8,840 nucleotides of DNA from a virus. Lineage: Duplodnaviria; Heunggongvirae; Uroviricota; Caudoviricetes. Shown piece by piece: positions 1 through 8,840 of this stretch (within the stretch, counting starts at the first letter, position 1; every line of letters starts with the position of its first letter). Under the pieces are notes generated by a model, which saw nothing but the letters and a program-made list of their open reading frames with translations, ran no database searches and had not been told where the DNA came from. The stretch spans positions 1-8,840 of the IMG/VR virus record IMGVR_UViG_2917881069_000002. One strand, 5' to 3'. Made by a program: the position numbers and the translations under genes.

Positions 1-1038
1 TTAACGCTTATCCGCTACCAGTTTGAGCGCATGTTCCAGCACGTTAATGTCAGCGCCCGCTTTATGGGCATTTTCACTTAAATACCGCCGCCACTGCCGC
101 GCACCAGGAATCCCCTGGAACAGCCCCAGCATATGCCGGGTGATATGACCGAGATACGTCCCCTGGCTGAGTTCACGCTCAATGTACGGATACATAGCTC
201 GTACCACCGCCACCGGATCGGCATCGGTATCCGAGGAACCAAATATCTCTCGATCCACTGCCGCCAGAATGCCTGGGTTTTGATACGCTTCACGCCCGAC
301 CATCACGCCATCCATATGTTGCAGGTGTGCTTTAGCCTCTTCCAGCGACTTGATACCACCGTTAATTGACATAGCCAGATGCGGGAAATCACGCTTCAGT
401 TGATAGACGCGCGGGTAATCGAGCGGCGGGATCTCACGGTTTTCTTTTGGGCTTAAACCGGAGAGCCAGGCTTTACGCGCGTGGATGATAAACATCTCGC
501 ATTCGCCTTTGCCGGAAACGGTGTCGATAAAATCACAGAGAAATTCATAGCTGTCCTGGTCGTCAATGCCAATACGCGTTTTCACCGTCACTGGAATCGA
601 CACTACATCGCGCATCGCTTTTACGCAGTCAGCCACCAGTTGCGCATTCCCCATCAGGCACGCGCCAAACATGCCGTTCTGTACCCGGTCTGACGGGCAG
701 CCGACATTCAGGTTGATCTCATCATATCCGCGCGCTTCTGCCAGCTTCGCGCACTGCGCCAGCGCCGCCGGATCGCTACCGCCCAACTGTAACGCCACCG
801 GATGCTCTTCTTCACTGTATGCCAGGTAATCACCTTTACCGTGAATAATCGCCCCTGTGGTCACCATTTCGGTATAGAGCAACGTATTACGGGAGAGCAG
901 ACGCAGGAAATAACGGCAGTGTCTGTCCGTCCAGTCGAGCATAGGAGCAATGCTAAACCGAGAATTCCAGTAAACACCAGTTTTTTCAGGCATCACGCTG
1001 GTTTGATTAATTTTTTGTGTTTCATGATTATCGTGCAT
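1..1038 (-). CDS. dusA: tRNA-dihydrouridine synthase A (DusA), complete, 345 codons
   Basis: Minus-strand ORF with TAA stop at 1-3 and ATG at 1036-1038. Translation ([44 protein letters not shown] ... [21 protein letters not shown] ... ending ALKLVADKR) is recognisably enterobacterial DusA. No strong SD before the ATG at 1038; an in-frame ATG 45 nt downstream (MPEKTG...) is an alternative start. Confidence 0.95.
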
Positions 1039-1070
1039 TTTTGAACATTTCAGGCTATTTTTCTCGCGTT

Positions 1071-1106
1071 AGGTTCCCGCACAGGTTCCCACGTTTTATG
1101 GGAACC
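1071..1106. promoter_or_regulatory. Repeat cluster in the dusA-int divergent intergenic region: direct repeat AGGTTCCC (1071-1078, 1083-1090) and inverted repeat GGTTCCC-N9-GGGAACC (1084-1106)
   Basis: Read directly from the sequence aggttcccgcacaggttcccacgttttatgggaacc, 21 bp upstream of the int ATG. No T-tract on either side, so not an intrinsic terminator. Function (operator, integrase or accessory-factor site) is inference. Confidence 0.3.
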
Positions 1107-1126
1107 CGAAATAACGAGGTCGTGTA

Positions 1127-2224
1127 ATGGCGTACTATAACATAGAGAAACGACTAAAATCCGATGGCACACCACGCTATCGCTGTAATGTGATTATCAA
1201 AGAAAAAGGGGTTATCACTTACAGGGAAAGCAAAACATTCCCTAAACATGCTCATGCCAAAACATGGGGCACACAGAAAGTGATGGAATTAGATCTACAT
1301 GGCATTCCATCATCAAATGCTGTTGACGGGCTTACAGTCCGTGACTTACTACGCAAATATTTAAATGACCCAAATGCCGGAGGTAAAGCAGGCCGTACTA
1401 AAAGATATGTGCTGGAACTACTTATGGATAGTGACATTTCTGCGATCAGACTATCTGAATTAACAGAAAATGACGTAATAGAACATTGCAGGTTGAGAAA
1501 CAACGCCGGTGCAGGTCCAGCTACTGTTAGCCACGATGTTAGTTATCTTGGCAGTGTTCTGGATGCAGCCAAACCTGTATACGGAATTAATTACACATCA
1601 AACCCAGCAAAAGCCGCTCGTCCATATCTACTTAAACTTGGTTTAATTGGTAAATCAAATCGTCGTAATCGTAGACCAGCATCTGATGAACTAGACATGC
1701 TCATTGAAGGCCTTCAACAACGATCTACTCATAAATGCTCAAAAATTCCGTTCGTTGATATCCTCAAATTTTCTGTGTGGTCCTGTATGCGAATCGGAGA
1801 AGTATGCCGGTTACGATGGGAAGATCTCGACCAGGAACAAAAATCTATACTAGTAAGAGACAGGAAAGATCCACGTAAAAAGGAAGGTAACCATATGAAA
1901 GTGGCCTTGCTTGGGGAAGCCTGGGATATCGTCCAACGACAACCCAAAAAATCTGAATTCATTTTTCCATACAACAGCACTTCTGTTACCGCAGGATTTC
2001 AGAGGGTAAGAAGCAAATTAGGTATTAAAGATCTGCGATACCATGATTTGCGTAGAGAAGGGGCAAGTCGCTTATTTGAGGCTGGTTTTAGTATTGAGGA
2101 AGTCGCCCAGGTTACAGGGCATCGTTCATTAAACGTGCTATGGCAGGTATATACCGAACTGTATCCAAAATCTTTACATAATCGTTTTGAAGAACTCCAA
2201 AGGAGCAGAAATAAGACCTCTTGA
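1127..2224 (+). CDS. int: Phage tyrosine integrase (site-specific recombinase), dusA-associated type, 365 codons
   Basis: ATG at 1127 preceded by GAGG (1116-1119, 7-nt spacer). C-terminal catalytic region carries tyrosine-recombinase signature residues: Arg in CMRIGEVCRLRWEDL, H-x-x-R in YHDLRREGASRL, His in TGHRS and Tyr in LWQVYTELY. Divergent and 88 bp from dusA; lower GC than dusA. Confidence 0.92.
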   Translation: MAYYNIEKRLKSDGTPRYRCNVIIKEKGVITYRESKTFPKHAHAKTWGTQKVMELDLHGIPSSNAVDGLTVRDLLRKYLNDPNAGGKAGRTKRYVLELLMDSDISAIRLSELTENDVIEHCRLRNNAGAGPATVSHDVSYLGSVLDAAKPVYGINYTSNPAKAARPYLLKLGLIGKSNRRNRRPASDELDMLIEGLQQRSTHKCSKIPFVDILKFSVWSCMRIGEVCRLRWEDLDQEQKSILVRDRKDPRKKEGNHMKVALLGEAWDIVQRQPKKSEFIFPYNSTSVTAGFQRVRSKLGIKDLRYHDLRREGASRLFEAGFSIEEVAQVTGHRSLNVLWQVYTELYPKSLHNRFEELQRSRNKTS

Positions 2225-2272
2225 CACTGTTTATTCATACAGTTAAAAATAATACTGTATACAAACACAGTA
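2221..2272 (+). promoter_or_regulatory. SOS-regulated promoter: -35 TTGACA (2221-2226), -10 TAAAAT (2245-2250), two LexA boxes (CTGT-N8-ACAG) at 2225-2244 and 2253-2272
   Basis: Box 1 cACTGTttattcatACAGtt; box 2 taCTGTatacaaacACAGta, which differs from the consensus TACTGTATATATATACAGTA at only three central positions. The -35 overlaps the int stop codon (TGA 2222-2224). The GAGGGA RBS at 2275-2280 and dinI ATG at 2286 follow. Confidence 0.8.
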
Positions 2273-2285
2273 TAGAGGGATTTTT

Positions 2286-2534
2286 ATGCGTATTGAGATC
2301 TGCATAGCCAAAGAGAAAATGACTAAAATGCCAAACGGTGCTGTGGATGCGTTAAAGGAAGAATTAACTCGACGCATCAGTAAGCGTTATGACGATGTAG
2401 AGGTGATCGTAAAAGCCACCAGCAACGATGGCCTTTCTGTTACGCGCACCGCCGATAAAGATTCAGCTAAAACTTTTGTTCAGGAAACTCTGAAAGATAC
2501 CTGGGAGTCTGCTGACGAGTGGTTTGTTCATTAA
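2286..2534 (+). CDS. dinI: DinI-family (DNA-damage-inducible protein I-like) protein, 82 aa, prophage-encoded
   Basis: Translation [31 protein letters not shown] ... [10 protein letters not shown] ... [17 protein letters not shown] follows the E. coli DinI pattern as I recall it (MRIE..IAK...GA.DAL..EL.RRI...LSV...QETWESADDWFV; recalled, not verified). Good RBS and tandem LexA boxes immediately upstream. Confidence 0.88.
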
Positions 2535-2600
2535 TTAATACGTAAAATCGATAACGGCTGGAAATCATTCAATACTCGCACTATCGGAAGTTCACCAGCC

Positions 2601-2641
2601 AGCCGCAGTATTCTGCCATGACAAGTTGCTGCGGCTTTTTA
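2601..2641 (+). terminator. Putative rho-independent terminator downstream of dinI, between convergent genes
   Basis: Stem 2601-2610 (agccgcagta) pairs with 2627-2636 (tgctgcggct), 16-nt loop, followed by TTTTT (2636-2640). The long loop makes it weaker than a canonical terminator. No U-tract on the minus-strand side. Confidence 0.4.
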
Positions 2642-2644
2642 TGT

Positions 2645-2932
2645 TTAACGGATAAACAGCCAGACCAGCAGACACGCCACCACCGGCACAGCAAAATCCA
2701 TCAGACTTGCCATATCCCACACGCGCGGATCAAAACCACCCCACCACGGCATATTCATACGCTTGCCATGCCCGAACATTTCAATCCAGCGATATTCTGC
2801 CTGGGTATGTTCACGCGCAATGAAGAACGTACAACCGGCTATCGCTCCGTAAGCCCAGTTCCCGGTAAAAAGACCAACCAGTACCTGCGCAGCCACAGCA
2901 CAAAGTGCATGAAGGAAAGGTGTTATATCCAT
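2645..2932 (-). CDS. Small integral membrane protein (95 aa, 2-3 predicted TM helices), function unknown; candidate moron / superinfection-exclusion-type protein
   Basis: ATG at 2930-2932 preceded by AGGAGGAG (complement of 2934-2941), 10 bp after the stop of the upstream 227-aa gene. Hydrophobic segments FLHALCAVAAQVLVGLFTG, AYGAIAGCTFFIA and LMDFAVPVVACLLVWLFI. The opposing plus-strand 158-aa ORF (2618-3094) is His/Arg/Cys-rich junk with no RBS. Confidence 0.65.
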   Translation of the reverse strand: MDITPFLHALCAVAAQVLVGLFTGNWAYGAIAGCTFFIAREHTQAEYRWIEMFGHGKRMNMPWWGGFDPRVWDMASLMDFAVPVVACLLVWLFIR

Positions 2933-2942
2933 TACTCCTCCT

Positions 2943-3626
2943 TTATCCGATATCGCTTCGGGAAGTTGATAACAGCTTTAATTCTGACTCAAGTTCATCA
3001 ACTCTTTCTGTCAGTTTCTGGATATGGTGAATCAGTGGAACAACCAGACGTTCGTACATCACACCTTCGGCAACAAGGCCATTGCTGGAAATAGCTTCCG
3101 GTGCATCATCTTCGTTAGCTGGTCGCCAGTGTACAAACTGAGGGGCAATTTCTCCTACTTCCTCGGCAATCAATCCGTAGAATCCCCAGTCACGCCTGTC
3201 ATTTTCGCATTGCGACCTGTACCACACAGGGCGCATCTTGAAAATGAGATCGGCGTGCTCTGAATCTATCGTCTCTACTGAATGTTTATAGCGGATAGAC
3301 GATGTTGACCGCAGCACAGACGAAATTGCGGGGTCAGGATTAAGATAAAGGTTTGCCGCCGCTGTAGTCGTGCCCAATCCCCACAAATAAAACGCTTCAC
3401 GACCAGTCAGCGGGTAAAAATCTCCACCATAACGACCACTTTCCAGATCGTTCACTTCCACTTTGTTTTTCAGCTTATTATCAACTTCAGTTTTTGTGTA
3501 TCTGGAGCTGATATCCTGCTTTGCACTGGTCATCTCAGTCTGAAGCGTTGATACTTTTCCGTTAATTGAGGAAATATCTCCCTTTAGCTTGGTGATATCT
3601 CCTGGAATTACTGTCGATATAGCCAT
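2943..3626 (-). CDS. Tail-fibre-like protein: N-terminal coiled-coil plus C-terminal intramolecular chaperone (Peptidase S74 / endosialidase-chaperone type) domain, 227 aa
   Basis: ATG at 3624-3626 preceded by GGGAGA (TGA-GGGAGATAA-ATG). C-terminal half carries S74-type motifs: S109-S-I-R-Y-K114 (S-x-x-R-x-K, candidate autocleavage Ser/Lys dyad), MRPVWY, GLIAEEVGEIAPQFV, and a terminal helix PLIHHIQKLTERVDELESELKLL. N-terminal ITKLKGDISSINGKVSTLQTEMTSAKQDISSRYTKTEVDNKLKNKVEVNDL is heptad-like. Confidence 0.8.
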   Translation of the reverse strand: MAISTVIPGDITKLKGDISSINGKVSTLQTEMTSAKQDISSRYTKTEVDNKLKNKVEVNDLESGRYGGDFYPLTGREAFYLWGLGTTTAAANLYLNPDPAISSVLRSTSSIRYKHSVETIDSEHADLIFKMRPVWYRSQCENDRRDWGFYGLIAEEVGEIAPQFVHWRPANEDDAPEAISSNGLVAEGVMYERLVVPLIHHIQKLTERVDELESELKLLSTSRSDIG

Positions 3627-3635
3627 TTATCTCCC

Positions 3636-3917
3636 TCACATCCAGCCACGAAGTTGATGTTCAACTACAACCGCGTATTCATCGAATAATGACGATATTT
3701 GCGTATCATTAATGATGCGCACGTTTACAAAATATCCGTCTTCCTTAACACATACCGGATCGCCATCTTCAGTAAGTTCTCCGGTTTCTTTGTACACGTT
3801 ACCTATCACGTCAATGAGAATATCATCCTGCATCGACTCGTCATCATAATAGCCGATACTCTCCATAAAGGCCGAAAAGTCGGCTCTGTCGGCAAATTTG
3901 AGTGTTAAATCTTTCAT
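3636..3917 (-). CDS. Highly acidic 93-aa protein of unknown function, translationally coupled to the side tail fibre gene
   Basis: ATG at 3915-3917 overlaps the fibre stop (ATGA) and is preceded by GGGGAGAG inside the fibre 3' end. About 28% Asp+Glu with very few basic residues; no signal peptide or TM segment. Does not resemble lambda Tfa-type assembly proteins by eye. Confidence 0.65.
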   Translation of the reverse strand: MKDLTLKFADRADFSAFMESIGYYDDESMQDDILIDVIGNVYKETGELTEDGDPVCVKEDGYFVNVRIINDTQISSLFDEYAVVVEHQLRGWM

Positions 3918-6289
3918 TTAATACTCTCCCCGATTTGCGCATCAGTTAATTCTTTATGCCATATTCTGAAATTTCTAATATGACCGAATAAGTGACGTTC
4001 ACCCGTTGAAGTTTGCCCACCAAAACGAATGCTTGTATTCTTAGTTACATATCTCCACGCGGTTTTTTTAGGAACACTAGGAGGAATATCACCATTCAAA
4101 ACAATATGAACACCATAATCTTTAGTAATTCTAAATCCAGCAACGAACTTTCTCTCTTTCGTTACCAGGTAACTATTAACGCGTCCAGCATCTGCACCAA
4201 CATCAATATAAGGGCTACCAGTATTTGCGGCAGTACCGCCACGGCAACCAAAAATAACGGCCTGGCCAGTTGGCACACCGGAAAAATCCATTATACGTGG
4301 TGCTGCATTAGGAGGAAGTTCCCATTCCCAATTTCGATGAACTTCGGCTAAAACTGTAATAGGTGCGTCATACATATTATTCTTAACAGGAATGTTAACC
4401 AAATCACTAGCGCGGGTAGCTGGTACGTCGTTAGTTATGATTAATGATGTTGCATGAGAACATTTCTCTACCTGAGCGGTTGCCGCCTTTATGTAATTTC
4501 CTGCGACCAATTCGCCGCCACTTTTAGCAAGCATTTCAGTACGAGCATAAACGCTCATATCTTCGGTGGCTTTAAATGTCGATTGGAAAAAATACCATCC
4601 ACTAGCAGGATCATAATCAACGCGACTAGACAAAACATCACTAACTAGTTTAGCGGTATCAAGATCCAACATAGCATCAGCAATAAATGTGTTTCCGTTC
4701 CCGTCATCATTTAATTTTGAAATACGATGGCGAGCGCGACAACCAGCCCCCTTAACACGAATAGATATAGTAACATATTCACCACCAACAACTGGAATCA
4801 CACGGGATGTCCCAGTAGAAATCAACGTAACTGGCCCAGTGTCGGATGATTCTTTATAAGTGAATGTTGCTTGAGTAAAACCAAATTCATCAATAGAGTT
4901 TTCACTAACAGATAAACGGTTTGTATTTCTGTTCCAGTTCGCTGGTGAGTTACTATTAATAAAGTTATTAGTCGTAGTACCTTCAATCAACAAACCATTT
5001 TTTTCGAAGCGTGGTTCGTCAATTGCAGCCTCCGTCAGTACACCAGATTTGTTAATGTAGGTTGCTTTCGATGCGCGTTTAAACTTTACAACCTTATCGC
5101 CAGGCATTGTTATTTCATCATCACCAATAACAATCTTTTTATATGATGGCGAAAAGCCCGTAATCATATCCAGTGAATCGTTAAACGGTATCCACACATC
5201 GGGAAGCGGCTGCAAAACTTGTTTATACGGCTCCGCAGCCTGGCTTGCATACTCTCTGGCTGCGTCTTCACTTGCTTTTGCAGCCGTCTGGCTTGCAGCG
5301 GATGCTTTCGCCGAGTTAGCCGCCGCAGTCTCGCTCGCCTTTGCGTTGGTTTCACTGGTTTTTGCAGCTTTTTGACTGTTGGCTGATGCAGTGGCAGAAG
5401 AAGCCGCCGCACTTGCAGAACCAGCTGCGGCACTCTCGCTTTGGGCTGCTGCATCCTGACTGTTTTTCGCCGCAGTTTCGCTGGCTTTGGCATTCGTTTC
5501 GCTGGTCTTCGCTGCCGTCTGGCTGGACTTTGCGTTAGTTTCACTCGTCTTCGCAGCTTTCTGGCTGTTAGCCGCAGCAGTTGCTGATCCAGCTGCTGAA
5601 GTCGCAGAACCGGCTGCAGCACTCTCGCTTTCGGCTGCTGCAGCCTGACTGCTTTTCGCCGCAGTTTCACTGGTTTTGGCATTCGTTTCGCTTGTTTTCG
5701 CTGCCGTCTGGCTGGACTTTGCGTTAGTTTCGCTCGTCTTTGCGGCTGTCTCGCTGTTTTTCGCATTGGTTTCTGATTTTTTGGCTGCTGTCGCGGAGTT
5801 TGCCGATGCAGTCTGTGAGGCCGCTGCCGCCTGTGCGCTGTTAGCTGCATTCGTTTCTGAGGTTTTCGCCGCGTTCTTCGATGATGCCGCTGCAGTTTCG
5901 GATTTCTTTGCCGCCGCTGCGCTCTGAGAGGCGGCTTCGGCGTTGCGTGCCGCTTCTTCCACCATTTCCTCAAAACGACGCAATGCCTCCGGCATGACGT
6001 CCTCTTCCGTCATGGCACCGAGAAAATCATTCAGCGTACCTGGTCTGGAACCTTCATAGACGGTAATGGTCCCGGCATGTGAAGGCGGAAAACCTTCAAC
6101 CAGCAGGGTGACGCTGTACTGGCCATACTCAACATCCATACTGTAACGCCCGGCTTCATCCGGATTTTCAGATGCCACCGTGTTCACCAGTACCGTGGTG
6201 CTGTTACGCTTTGCCTTCAGTTGAATAGTGCAGTTCTGTATTGGTTTTCCCGCACCATCTTTCAGCACACCTGAAATCTGTACTGCCAT
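3914..6289 (-). CDS. stf: Side tail fibre protein (lambda Stf-like N-terminal domain, Ala/Ser/Thr-rich repeat shaft, distinct C-terminal jelly-roll/LamG-like putative receptor-binding domain)
   Basis: Start taken as ATG 6287-6289 (GGAG 5 nt upstream); the track start at 6295 is a GTG inside the SD. N-terminus MAVQISGVLKDGAGKPIQNCTIQLKAKRNSTTV ... EAGRYSMDVEYGQYSV ... GFPPSHAGTITVYE matches the lambda Stf N-terminal domain as I recall it. C-terminal ~400 aa are AT-rich DNA, starting EPRFEKNGLLIEGTTTNNF and ending RFGGQTSTGERHLFGHIRNFRIWHKELTDAQIGESIK. Confidence 0.9.
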   Translation of the reverse strand: MAVQISGVLKDGAGKPIQNCTIQLKAKRNSTTVLVNTVASENPDEAGRYSMDVEYGQYSVTLLVEGFPPSHAGTITVYEGSRPGTLNDFLGAMTEEDVMPEALRRFEEMVEEAARNAEAASQSAAAAKKSETAAASSKNAAKTSETNAANSAQAAAASQTASANSATAAKKSETNAKNSETAAKTSETNAKSSQTAAKTSETNAKTSETAAKSSQAAAAESESAAAGSATSAAGSATAAANSQKAAKTSETNAKSSQTAAKTSETNAKASETAAKNSQDAAAQSESAAAGSASAAASSATASANSQKAAKTSETNAKASETAAANSAKASAASQTAAKASEDAAREYASQAAEPYKQVLQPLPDVWIPFNDSLDMITGFSPSYKKIVIGDDEITMPGDKVVKFKRASKATYINKSGVLTEAAIDEPRFEKNGLLIEGTTTNNFINSNSPANWNRNTNRLSVSENSIDEFGFTQATFTYKESSDTGPVTLISTGTSRVIPVVGGEYVTISIRVKGAGCRARHRISKLNDDGNGNTFIADAMLDLDTAKLVSDVLSSRVDYDPASGWYFFQSTFKATEDMSVYARTEMLAKSGGELVAGNYIKAATAQVEKCSHATSLIITNDVPATRASDLVNIPVKNNMYDAPITVLAEVHRNWEWELPPNAAPRIMDFSGVPTGQAVIFGCRGGTAANTGSPYIDVGADAGRVNSYLVTKERKFVAGFRITKDYGVHIVLNGDIPPSVPKKTAWRYVTKNTSIRFGGQTSTGERHLFGHIRNFRIWHKELTDAQIGESIK
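5341..5760 (-). repeat. In-frame tandem duplication, period 189 bp (63 aa), about 2.2 copies, containing 42-bp (14-aa AAKTSETNAKSSQT-like) sub-repeats, within the stf shaft
   Basis: Copy at about 5425-5556 is near-identical to 5614-5745 (offset 189 bp); unit starts at about 5341, 5530 and 5719 (partial). Encodes the repeated block AAKTSETNAK(S/A)S(Q/E)TAAK..SESAAAGSA...ANSQK. Confidence 0.75.
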
Positions 6290-6300
6290 ACTCACTCCAC

Positions 6301-6328
6301 AAATAAAAAAGGCGCCATTTCCGGCGCC
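6301..6328 (-). terminator. Rho-independent terminator between J and stf
   Basis: Minus strand reads GGCGCC-GGAAAT-GGCGCC (6-bp all-GC stem, 6-nt loop; 6328-6311) followed by TTTTTTATTT (6310-6301). It sits 22 nt after the J stop, and its T-tract abuts the stf SD. Confidence 0.6.
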
Positions 6329-6349
6329 CGTATTGGGGTTATAAATATT

Positions 6350-8107
6350 TCAACGGATACTGATACCGGAAGCAGCTTTTTTGGTCACAATCACTGTACA
6401 GTCTGTGATGTTACCTGCGCCCTGATTGCCTTTCTGGAAAATCTTAAACTCCAGAGTGACGCTACCACCACCACTCGGCATATCAATAACCGCACTGTAA
6501 CTACCGGGAATGGCTCCTTTAGTTTCTCTGGTTGCGATTAATACGCCGTTTTTGCGAACTTCAAAACCATAACCCGTGTATCGCGTACCTCCCGGGTTAT
6601 TACCGCTCCCCGGATCGTCATACGCCACACCATTAAAAATAATGGGCGGAATAATAATCTGACGGTCAAAGTTATGATCATCGTAAATGGTGACTGTAAC
6701 CGTCCCGCCTGGTGTTTCCGTATCGCCCCACGAGCCAGTTTTTTTCGGGAATGGCTTAGATACAGCTTTGACGAAGTCACCTCTGACCTGAGTTGCCTCC
6801 AGCATTCCCTTAATCGTACAGTTCTCATTTATCGTGACGTTGTTGAGCGTCCCGGAGTTCGCGTTCACGTTACCGCTGATATCCGCATTTTTCGCCGTCA
6901 GCCGCCCGTCCGGTGTCAGGGAAAATGCCGGAGGATTACCGCCGCTGGTAATGGTGGGAGCCGTCAGATACTTCAGGAACACTTCGTTCATGAATATCTG
7001 GTTGCCCTGCGCCACAAACATCGGCGTTTCATTCCCGTTTGCCGGGTCAATAAACGCGATACGGTTAGCGGCAACCAGGAACTGGCTCAGTTTGCCTTCC
7101 TCCGTATCCTCCATACTAAGGCCAAGCCCCGCGACATAATGCCTGCCGTCTTCGGTCTGCTCAATTTTGACGCCCCACATGGCATTCCATTTATCGTTGG
7201 CGTCCTTCCACTCTTTCGAAAACTCCTCCAGTTTGCTGGCGTTATCCTCCGTCAGCTCGACTTTTTCCAGCAGCTCCTTGCCGAGATGGGATTCGGTTAT
7301 CTGGCCTTTGAAAAAATCCAGGTAACCTTCCGCATCATCGCTCGCCCGACCGACAGCCTCCACGAATGTCGATTTGCCGACGGTGTTCACACTGCGAACG
7401 TAAAAATAATAATCATGGCCCGGTTTGATATTGATACTGGCGGCTATCCAGTACAGCGCCGTGCCAAGATAGCGGGCTGTGGTTTCAACCTGCCTGATAT
7501 CCGCAATCCGCTTTTCCGAGAACCAGAACTCAAACTGTACAGTCGGATCATAAACCGCAAGATGCGGCGTGGCGGTTATCTGAAAATAGCCCGGCGTCAG
7601 CTCAATCCGCGATGGCGCTGCCGGTGCGGCAATCCGGAACGATACCGACGCCGGATCGCCCTGCTGCCCCCACGCATTTACCGCCCGGACTGTCAGACTG
7701 TAATTTCCCAGAGCCAGCTGCCTGAAGCGGTATGTGGTTTCCGTCGTCCGGGCCGTGCTGACCAGCCGCTCACTGCCGTCATCCGCTGCCACGGTCAGGC
7801 GAAGCATAAAGCTCACGCCCTTCACCACCTTCGGCGTATCCCAGCGCGCCAGCACCTGGTATTCCCCGCTGTCTGCGGTGACTTCTGCGGTCAGGTGTTG
7901 CACTGCTGGCGGAGTGACACCATTCACCGTGCCGCTCTGGTCGCCGTCAAAGTGCGCCCCGTTATCCACGATGGCTTCTTTCTCCGGCACATGCTGCACG
8001 GCGGTGATGGCATACGTACCGTCATCGTTCTCACGGATACTCACGCAGCGGAACAGGCGCTGGCGCAGCGTCGGCAGCTTCAGCCCCCACCACGCTGTAT
8101 TCTGCAA
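6350..8107 (-). CDS. J: Host-specificity protein J (central tail fibre / tail tip), C-terminal 585-codon segment; its upstream end is a frameshift point, not a true start
   Basis: Long minus-strand ORF ending ...[13 protein letters not shown] with TGA at 6350-6352. Translation from [41 protein letters not shown] onward reads as a lambda gpJ-family protein. The track M at 8107 is a TTG; the real continuation is in the overlapping upstream frame. Confidence 0.85.
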
Positions 8108-8840
8108 CGCCGTCAGGAACCCGTCTCACTTTCACCTTCACGCCGTCGGTGACGGACTGGACCTCCACGCTGACCGGATTCCCCTGTCCGTCAACCAGGC
8201 TTATCAGCGTGGTGCCGGAGGATGGCAGCGTGATTTCACGGTCGAGCGTCAGTGTCCGCGTCTGGCTGTTCACCGCCAGCACGCGCCCGCCGATGCTGAT
8301 ACCCGCATAGTCATCATCACAGATTTCAATGACATCGCCCGGTACATGGCGAAGCCCTTCTGCACCCACGCTGAAGTCCACGGTCTGCGTTTCCAGCAGC
8401 TCCGTTTTAATCAGCCACAGCCCGGCGCGGTGTGCCTGCCCCCGGCTGGTACAGCCAAAGGCATCCATCTTCGTGACGTTACGACCGTAACGGAGAATGG
8501 CCTGCGTATCTTCAACAAGCTCTGTCGCCGTCTCCCAGCCGTTATTCGGGTCAATCCAGTTCACCTCAACGGCATTATGGCGGTCCTTCAGGGCGCTGAA
8601 GCTGTAGCGGAACGGCGCGCCATCATCCGGCATCACCACATTACTGCGGTTATAGGTCCACACCTTATCCGACGGTCGGTCCTGCACGAACGTCAGCGTC
8701 TGCCCGTTCCATACCGGCATACAGCGCATCGCCGAGCAGAAATCACTGAGAACATCCCACGCCTTACGCTGTGTGGTCAGGTAGGCATTACGAGGTGATG
8801 CGCGGCTCCGTGCCACCAAAGCCATCCGGCACCGACTGGT
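8031..8840 (-). CDS. J: Host-specificity protein J, N-proximal segment (5' end beyond the window), terminated by an apparent frameshift
   Basis: Frame is open to the window edge (codons TSRCR precede the track's ATG at 8823-8825). Translation ...[72 protein letters not shown]...[17 protein letters not shown] is J-like. It then degenerates to [19 protein letters not shown] and stops at 8031-8033 while the J-like reading continues in the other frame. Confidence 0.85.

Follow-up and report, generated by a model that had tools for sequence, protein, structure and literature searches.

The lambda-type J tail-tip gene at the end of the window (the whole 8,840-nt stretch of DNA analysed here) carries two surplus single bases, each of which breaks its reading frame. 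Both breaks are very probably single-base insertion errors in an Ion Torrent consensus, with J continuous in the real genome; this reading draws on base-by-base comparison with intact J genes, on the source of the contig and on the errors found elsewhere in it.

As deposited, the gene appears as two overlapping minus-strand ORFs that are consecutive pieces of one J gene: ORF 8031–8825 (264 aa) reads ...PDGVAEYSV and then 21 out-of-frame codons before a TGA stop at 8031–8033, and ORF 6350–8107 spans 585 codons (585 aa). Checks of translations and positions bore out the coordinates and sequence given for this pair in the earlier note, and with them its reading of the pair as a single J gene split by a 1-nt excess; both pieces match J at overwhelming significance. 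The upstream piece holds Phage-tail_3 (PF13550, E = 1.6e-43) and the downstream piece Ig_J, Ig_J_second, Phage_Tail_Tip and Ig_GpJ_C. Every domain from Phage-tail_3 onward exceeds the Pfam cut-offs, the N-terminal FNIII-A part lying beyond the contig end; the end of the window is also the end of the contig, and J therefore runs off it. The full series (FNIII-A_GpJ, Phage-tail_3, Ig_J, Ig_J_second, Phage_Tail_Tip, Ig_GpJ_C) is present in an intact relative (L057), and the order from Phage-tail_3 to Ig_GpJ_C is that of lambda gpJ (TipJ, the tail tip attachment/host specificity protein, found also in E. coli prophages such as the one integrated at dusA in HCM-25C-3). The possibility that the two segments are separate genes was checked against intact homologues; J is a single ORF there, and the two pieces are therefore not normally separate. 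The best homologues of the C-terminal piece (93–97% identical) all reach N-terminally past the junction.

A single continuous frame is recovered only when two bases are removed. The DNA from 7700 to 8840 matches annotated gpJ in 4,583 of 5,426 complete E. coli genomes, at a median of three places per matching genome and with identity of up to 99.2%, and the best of these matches align 1139 nt of the record with 1141 nt of the query, i.e., two bases fewer. The deposited gene has two breaks; deletion of both 8091 and 8792 yields one uninterrupted ORF of 828 codons, which enters at the end of the window, has its stop at 6350 and is collinear with residues 310–1158 of an intact 1159-aa J. The segments and lesions of the gene are collected in Table 1, together with the other features of the window.

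Table 1. Features of the window, with the surplus bases of J in square brackets (ranges given on window numbering)
Position	Strand	Feature	Basis or remark
8791..8840	-	J in its true frame, upstream of the C at 8792; runs to the window/contig end	Frame 3 translation, alignment to intact J
8792	-	Surplus C, ATCACCT[C]GTAATG; frame shift, TAA at 8790-8788	Alignment to intact J; absent from homologues
8092..8789	-	Middle J segment, true frame, ...PDGVAEYSV, Phage-tail_3; inside ORF 8031-8825	Translation, Pfam
8090..8091	-	GG with one G surplus, CAGCGT[G]GTGGGGG; the frameshift of the earlier note	Alignment; homologues read GTG/GTA-TGG
8084..8088	-	G5 run, TGG GGG = Trp-Gly; length unchanged in closest intact homologues	Alignment
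6350..8089	-	C-terminal J segment, true frame, ...GISIR and stop; Ig_J, Ig_J_second, Phage_Tail_Tip, Ig_GpJ_C receptor-binding domain; inside ORF 6350-8107	Pfam, homologues
3914..6289	-	Stf-like side tail fibre gene, intact, 791 aa, directly downstream of J	
1-1038	-	dusA	Chromosome side of prophage junction
1127-2224	+	Tyrosine integrase gene	Neighbours dusA
2286-2534	+	DinI-like gene	

To place the lesions, we aligned the window's J base by base with the intact gpJ of HCM-25C-3 and with the 5'-truncated J copy of E. coli MB98; over the first 1.5 kb of J as it lies in the window, two insertions of 1 nt came to light, and no more. Site 1 lies within the 19-mer AGCGTGGTGGGGGCTGAAG (minus strand, 8096–8078), which contains the G5 run at 8088–8084. 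Intact genes read CAGCGT-GTGGGGGCTG at this point, encoding S-V-W-G-L with the same G5 (GTG TGG GGG CTG = V-W-G-L), whereas the window reads CAGCGTGGTGGGGGCTG, which can be written by its surplus as CAGCGT[G]GTGGGGGCTG. The additional base is thus one G of the GG at 8091–8090, between the Val and Trp codons, a placement that is settled because some homologues use GTA for the valine (GTA-TGG). The earlier note had ascribed the frame change to the length of the G5 run; in the closest intact J genes the run is equally long, and the surplus G is found on its 5' side, which rules out G5 slippage as the lesion. Its proposal that removing one nucleotide from the run restores the frame is correct for site 1 as regards frame, but would give V-V-G-L in place of the conserved V-W-G-L.

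Site 2, which the earlier note overlooked in describing a single frameshift, is the surplus C at position 8792, 49 nt short of the end of the window, in the context ATCACCT[C]GTAATGCC, where intact genes encode I-T-C-N-A-Y. This insertion throws the frame out a second time, which gives rise to an immediate TAA stop. The deposited forms that carry the extra base are GTGGTGGGGG and CCTCGTAA; the forms lacking it at the two sites are GTGTGGGGG and CCTGTAA.

Neither insertion recurs in other J copies. Across the 5,426 complete E. coli genomes, a 61-nt query centred on site 1 found no exact match among 5,603 places (best 60/61, differing by that base alone), and a 79-nt query spanning site 2 found none among 1,503 places (best 78/79, again differing by that base alone). 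Among J loci taken from GTDB representatives and further assemblies, the site 1 insertion was absent from all 31 and the site 2 insertion from all 37. A scan of the GTDB representative genomes with the 264-aa fragment gave mainly intact Escherichia J genes and lambda-like J contigs of unrelated assemblies; the source of the window was not among the representatives. Both are therefore variants private to this assembly, in flanks that otherwise match the homologues. A homology search with the C-terminal fragment returned no identical J elsewhere for comparison, the top identity being 97%.

As an exact look-up of its DusA protein showed, the window corresponds to the terminal 8840 nt of the NCBI draft contig PDIG01000015.1 (GCA_004745185.1, 36,662 nt), such that window position p is contig position 27822+p and the surplus bases at 8091 and 8792 lie at contig positions 35913 and 36614. 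(In the sequence L051, which begins at the end of this contig, the window is the reverse complement of positions 1–8840.) PDIG00000000 is the assembly of Escherichia cryptic clade II strain E2661, isolated from Hong Kong intertidal sediment (PMC6639607). Its reads were Ion Torrent single-end reads of 35–400 nt at ~40x coverage, from a flow-based and indel-prone platform; MIRA and SPAdes served for assembly, and gaps at contig extremities were closed by hand (PMC6639607). There is no J protein on record for PDIG01000015.1, which would fit annotation of J as a pseudogene on this contig.

An independent view of the neighbouring sequence is available from the Logan assembly of SRR6148326, one contig of which (L052) overlaps the adjacent 9.8 kb (dusA, pspG, qorA onward) with 0 mismatches and four 1-nt indels. 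From the 0-mismatch overlap we infer that SRR6148326 belongs to strain E2661, whose announcement paper gives SRX rather than SRR accessions (PMC6639607). All four indels are extra bases in the NCBI contig. Three of them fall in qorA, a conserved housekeeping gene 1.5 kb beyond dusA (L051 9565–9570 and 9814; L052 3111–3113 and 3357), where the reading frame of E. coli qorA can serve as referee. The NCBI contig has two spurious bases in TTCCCT[C]G[C]CAAGG, which break qorA and are lacking in the Logan contig; conversely, at GC-GGGGCA elsewhere in the gene it is the Logan contig that is a base short and the NCBI contig that keeps the frame. As qorA is broken differently in each, both assemblies carry indel errors, resolving ambiguous flow calls differently; the NCBI contig has no recorded qorA protein.

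The fourth difference is a T5 run in the NCBI contig (L051 12603) against T4 in the Logan contig (L052 6146), towards the 3' end of a gene for an Nramp-family transporter. Its product ends in a hydrophobic, helix-like C-terminus in the Logan version and in a hydrophilic tail, encoded in overlap with the following gene, in the NCBI version, and in Pfam searches of both the domain stops before the indel; judged by the predicted proteins, the T5 of the NCBI contig may be another insertion error. The two assemblies thus disagree by indels only, and the indels break conserved genes, in what the 0-mismatch overlap suggests is a common read set.

The contexts of these errors recall those of the two J sites. 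The qorA context CCC-T-[C] resembles CC-T-[C] at site 2, and at site 1 a 1-mer is called as a 2-mer, one base from the G5 run; on these grounds the two J insertions would appear to share an error class with the neighbouring indels. On the Ion Torrent PGM, errors are mostly indels, among which insertions outnumber deletions; short and zero-length homopolymers are over-called, and roughly every kb of reference has a high-frequency indel error, with frameshifts in assemblies as a result (Bragg et al. 2013, PMC3623719). The J sites match this pattern in that both are single-base insertions (a 1-mer read as a 2-mer, and a zero-length flow read as 1), and the contig matches it in that the assemblies differ by indels without substitutions and conserved genes are frameshifted, the assignment being made here by context and analogy and not from flow values. 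In mechanistic terms, a single G at site 1 would have been over-called as GG just before T-GGGGG, and a zero-length flow at site 2 would have been over-called, inserting a C just after CC-T. Both errors could then have persisted in the consensus at ~40x single-end coverage, within 750 nt of the contig end and in a gene often present in several copies per Escherichia genome.

Exact look-ups were also made for protein and gene records that could bear on the frame of J in the Logan data. No truncated J product is on record among those sought, namely the 264-aa ORF, ten DNA-referenced variants (with GTG/TTG starts possibly not converted to M) and ten M-start variants. For the tail-fibre gene the exact look-up returned the NCBI contig alone, and for the 227-aa gene no SRR6148326 contig appeared among the ten places shown; the remaining contigs are short.

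The dusA, integrase and DinI-like genes (1..2534) mark the prophage end and its junction with the chromosome, the same end by dusA as in the HCM-25C-3 prophage, with which it shares integrase and DinI genes of 100% DNA identity. In contrast, dusA is 92.3% identical to that of E. coli, which fits the assignment of strain E2661 to cryptic clade II; the disparity between a divergent chromosomal gene and identical phage genes therefore points to a very recent transfer of the phage between Escherichia species. Relative to a gpJ of the HCM-25C-3 type, the window's J has the two surplus bases as deposited and is divergent in its C-terminal third, receptor-binding domain included (78% overall protein identity to that J, against 97% for the best database match).

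J also occupies the expected place in the tail module, with stf directly after it and the upstream tail genes off the contig. A lom gene (Ail/Lom outer-membrane protein) is absent from the interval between J and stf (6290–6349 of the window); related prophages (L001, L056 and L057) have a lom of ~600 nt here, and homology resumes cleanly on either side. The tail-fibre gene contains long Ala/Ser/Thr/Lys-rich repeats with a recurring KTSETNAK motif, and these repeats create spurious shadow ORFs on both strands (5164–5973, minus; 5676–5927, plus). On two metagenome scaffolds (L059 and L060), the same 227-aa and 95-aa tail-fibre-associated genes form an inverted duplication that flanks ParA/SopB-like partition genes, an arrangement that suggests either a plasmid-like prophage or an assembly palindrome. 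In many draft genomes of unrelated bacteria (L006–L050; e.g., Pseudomonas, Chromatium, Oceanobacillus, Kitasatospora, Shewanella and Vibrio), short or low-coverage contigs hold J genes 96–99% identical to this one over the matched stretch, apparently because the assemblies are contaminated with phage lambda.

We then considered whether both insertions could be real, such that two independent +1-nt frameshifts inactivated J and the functional tail tip was lost. Both lesions are present in the deposited sequence, the one consensus that covers these positions; decay of tail genes into pseudogenes is frequent in prophages, as in E. coli MB98, whose J is a 5'-truncated pseudogene; and two insertions in ~2.5 kb of J are somewhat more than the roughly 0.3 errors per kb of the neighbouring 9.8 kb. 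Against this, real mutations would have placed two frameshifts within 700 bp of each other in a prophage that otherwise shows no decay, neither insertion recurs in the thousands of J copies compared, and spurious single-base insertions of similar context occur in qorA of the same contig, on an Ion Torrent platform. Neither the substitution pattern nor the neighbouring genes gave any indication of accompanying decay or relaxed selection in the prophage within the window, as would characterize a pseudogene: comparison of the repaired J with two E. coli J genes (1488 nt) gave synonymous to non-synonymous codons of 16 to 5 and 12 to 6, and the other prophage genes of the window (integrase, DinI, the 95-aa, 227-aa and 93-aa genes and the 791-aa tail fibre) are intact, the 227-aa tail-fibre protein being residue-identical to copies on 21 contigs, several independent assemblies among them. 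We accordingly regard inactivation by real mutations as unlikely. A more specific scenario, in which a lambdoid prophage newly crossed from E. coli into cryptic clade II Escherichia and was disabled almost at once by two frameshifts in J, is likewise improbable; if true, it would be an example of rapid domestication/inactivation following cross-species transfer.

A biological switch, by programmed frameshifting or by slipped-strand mispairing at G5 turning J on and off, is brought to mind by the position of the G5 run 2 nt from the frame change, yet the surplus base is outside a run whose length is unchanged in the closest intact homologues. J is in a single frame in every homologue examined, neither frameshifted sequence occurs in any other J copy examined, and the second, unrelated insertion with its immediate TAA would need to be bypassed as well. 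With the arrangement unshared among homologues and the second insertion introducing a stop, programmed frameshifting and phase variation are effectively refuted, and we assign a switch of either kind a negligible likelihood.

The reading we prefer remains that of insertion errors in the consensus: the break in J, one of two stray single bases close to where an Ion Torrent draft contig ends, is most likely a sequencing artefact. The earlier note had left the choice between a sequencing error and a real mutation, and error is now the favoured option, albeit not as an error of the G5 homopolymer. What it drew from the second of these options, a prophage incapable of making functional tails, is unwarranted because a second insertion is present and both lie at a draft contig end on an indel-prone platform, the first of them outside G5. 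The frame break in J holds no new biology and is an ordinary finding. It does call for caution, in that broken frames in draft genomes produced on flow sequencers should not be equated with gene inactivation unless the reads are inspected; conclusions on tail formation by this prophage, or pseudogene counts in the cryptic clade II Escherichia genomes of the E2661 study, would mislead wherever such indels are trusted. For the prophage itself, the break in J says little about its ability to build tails.
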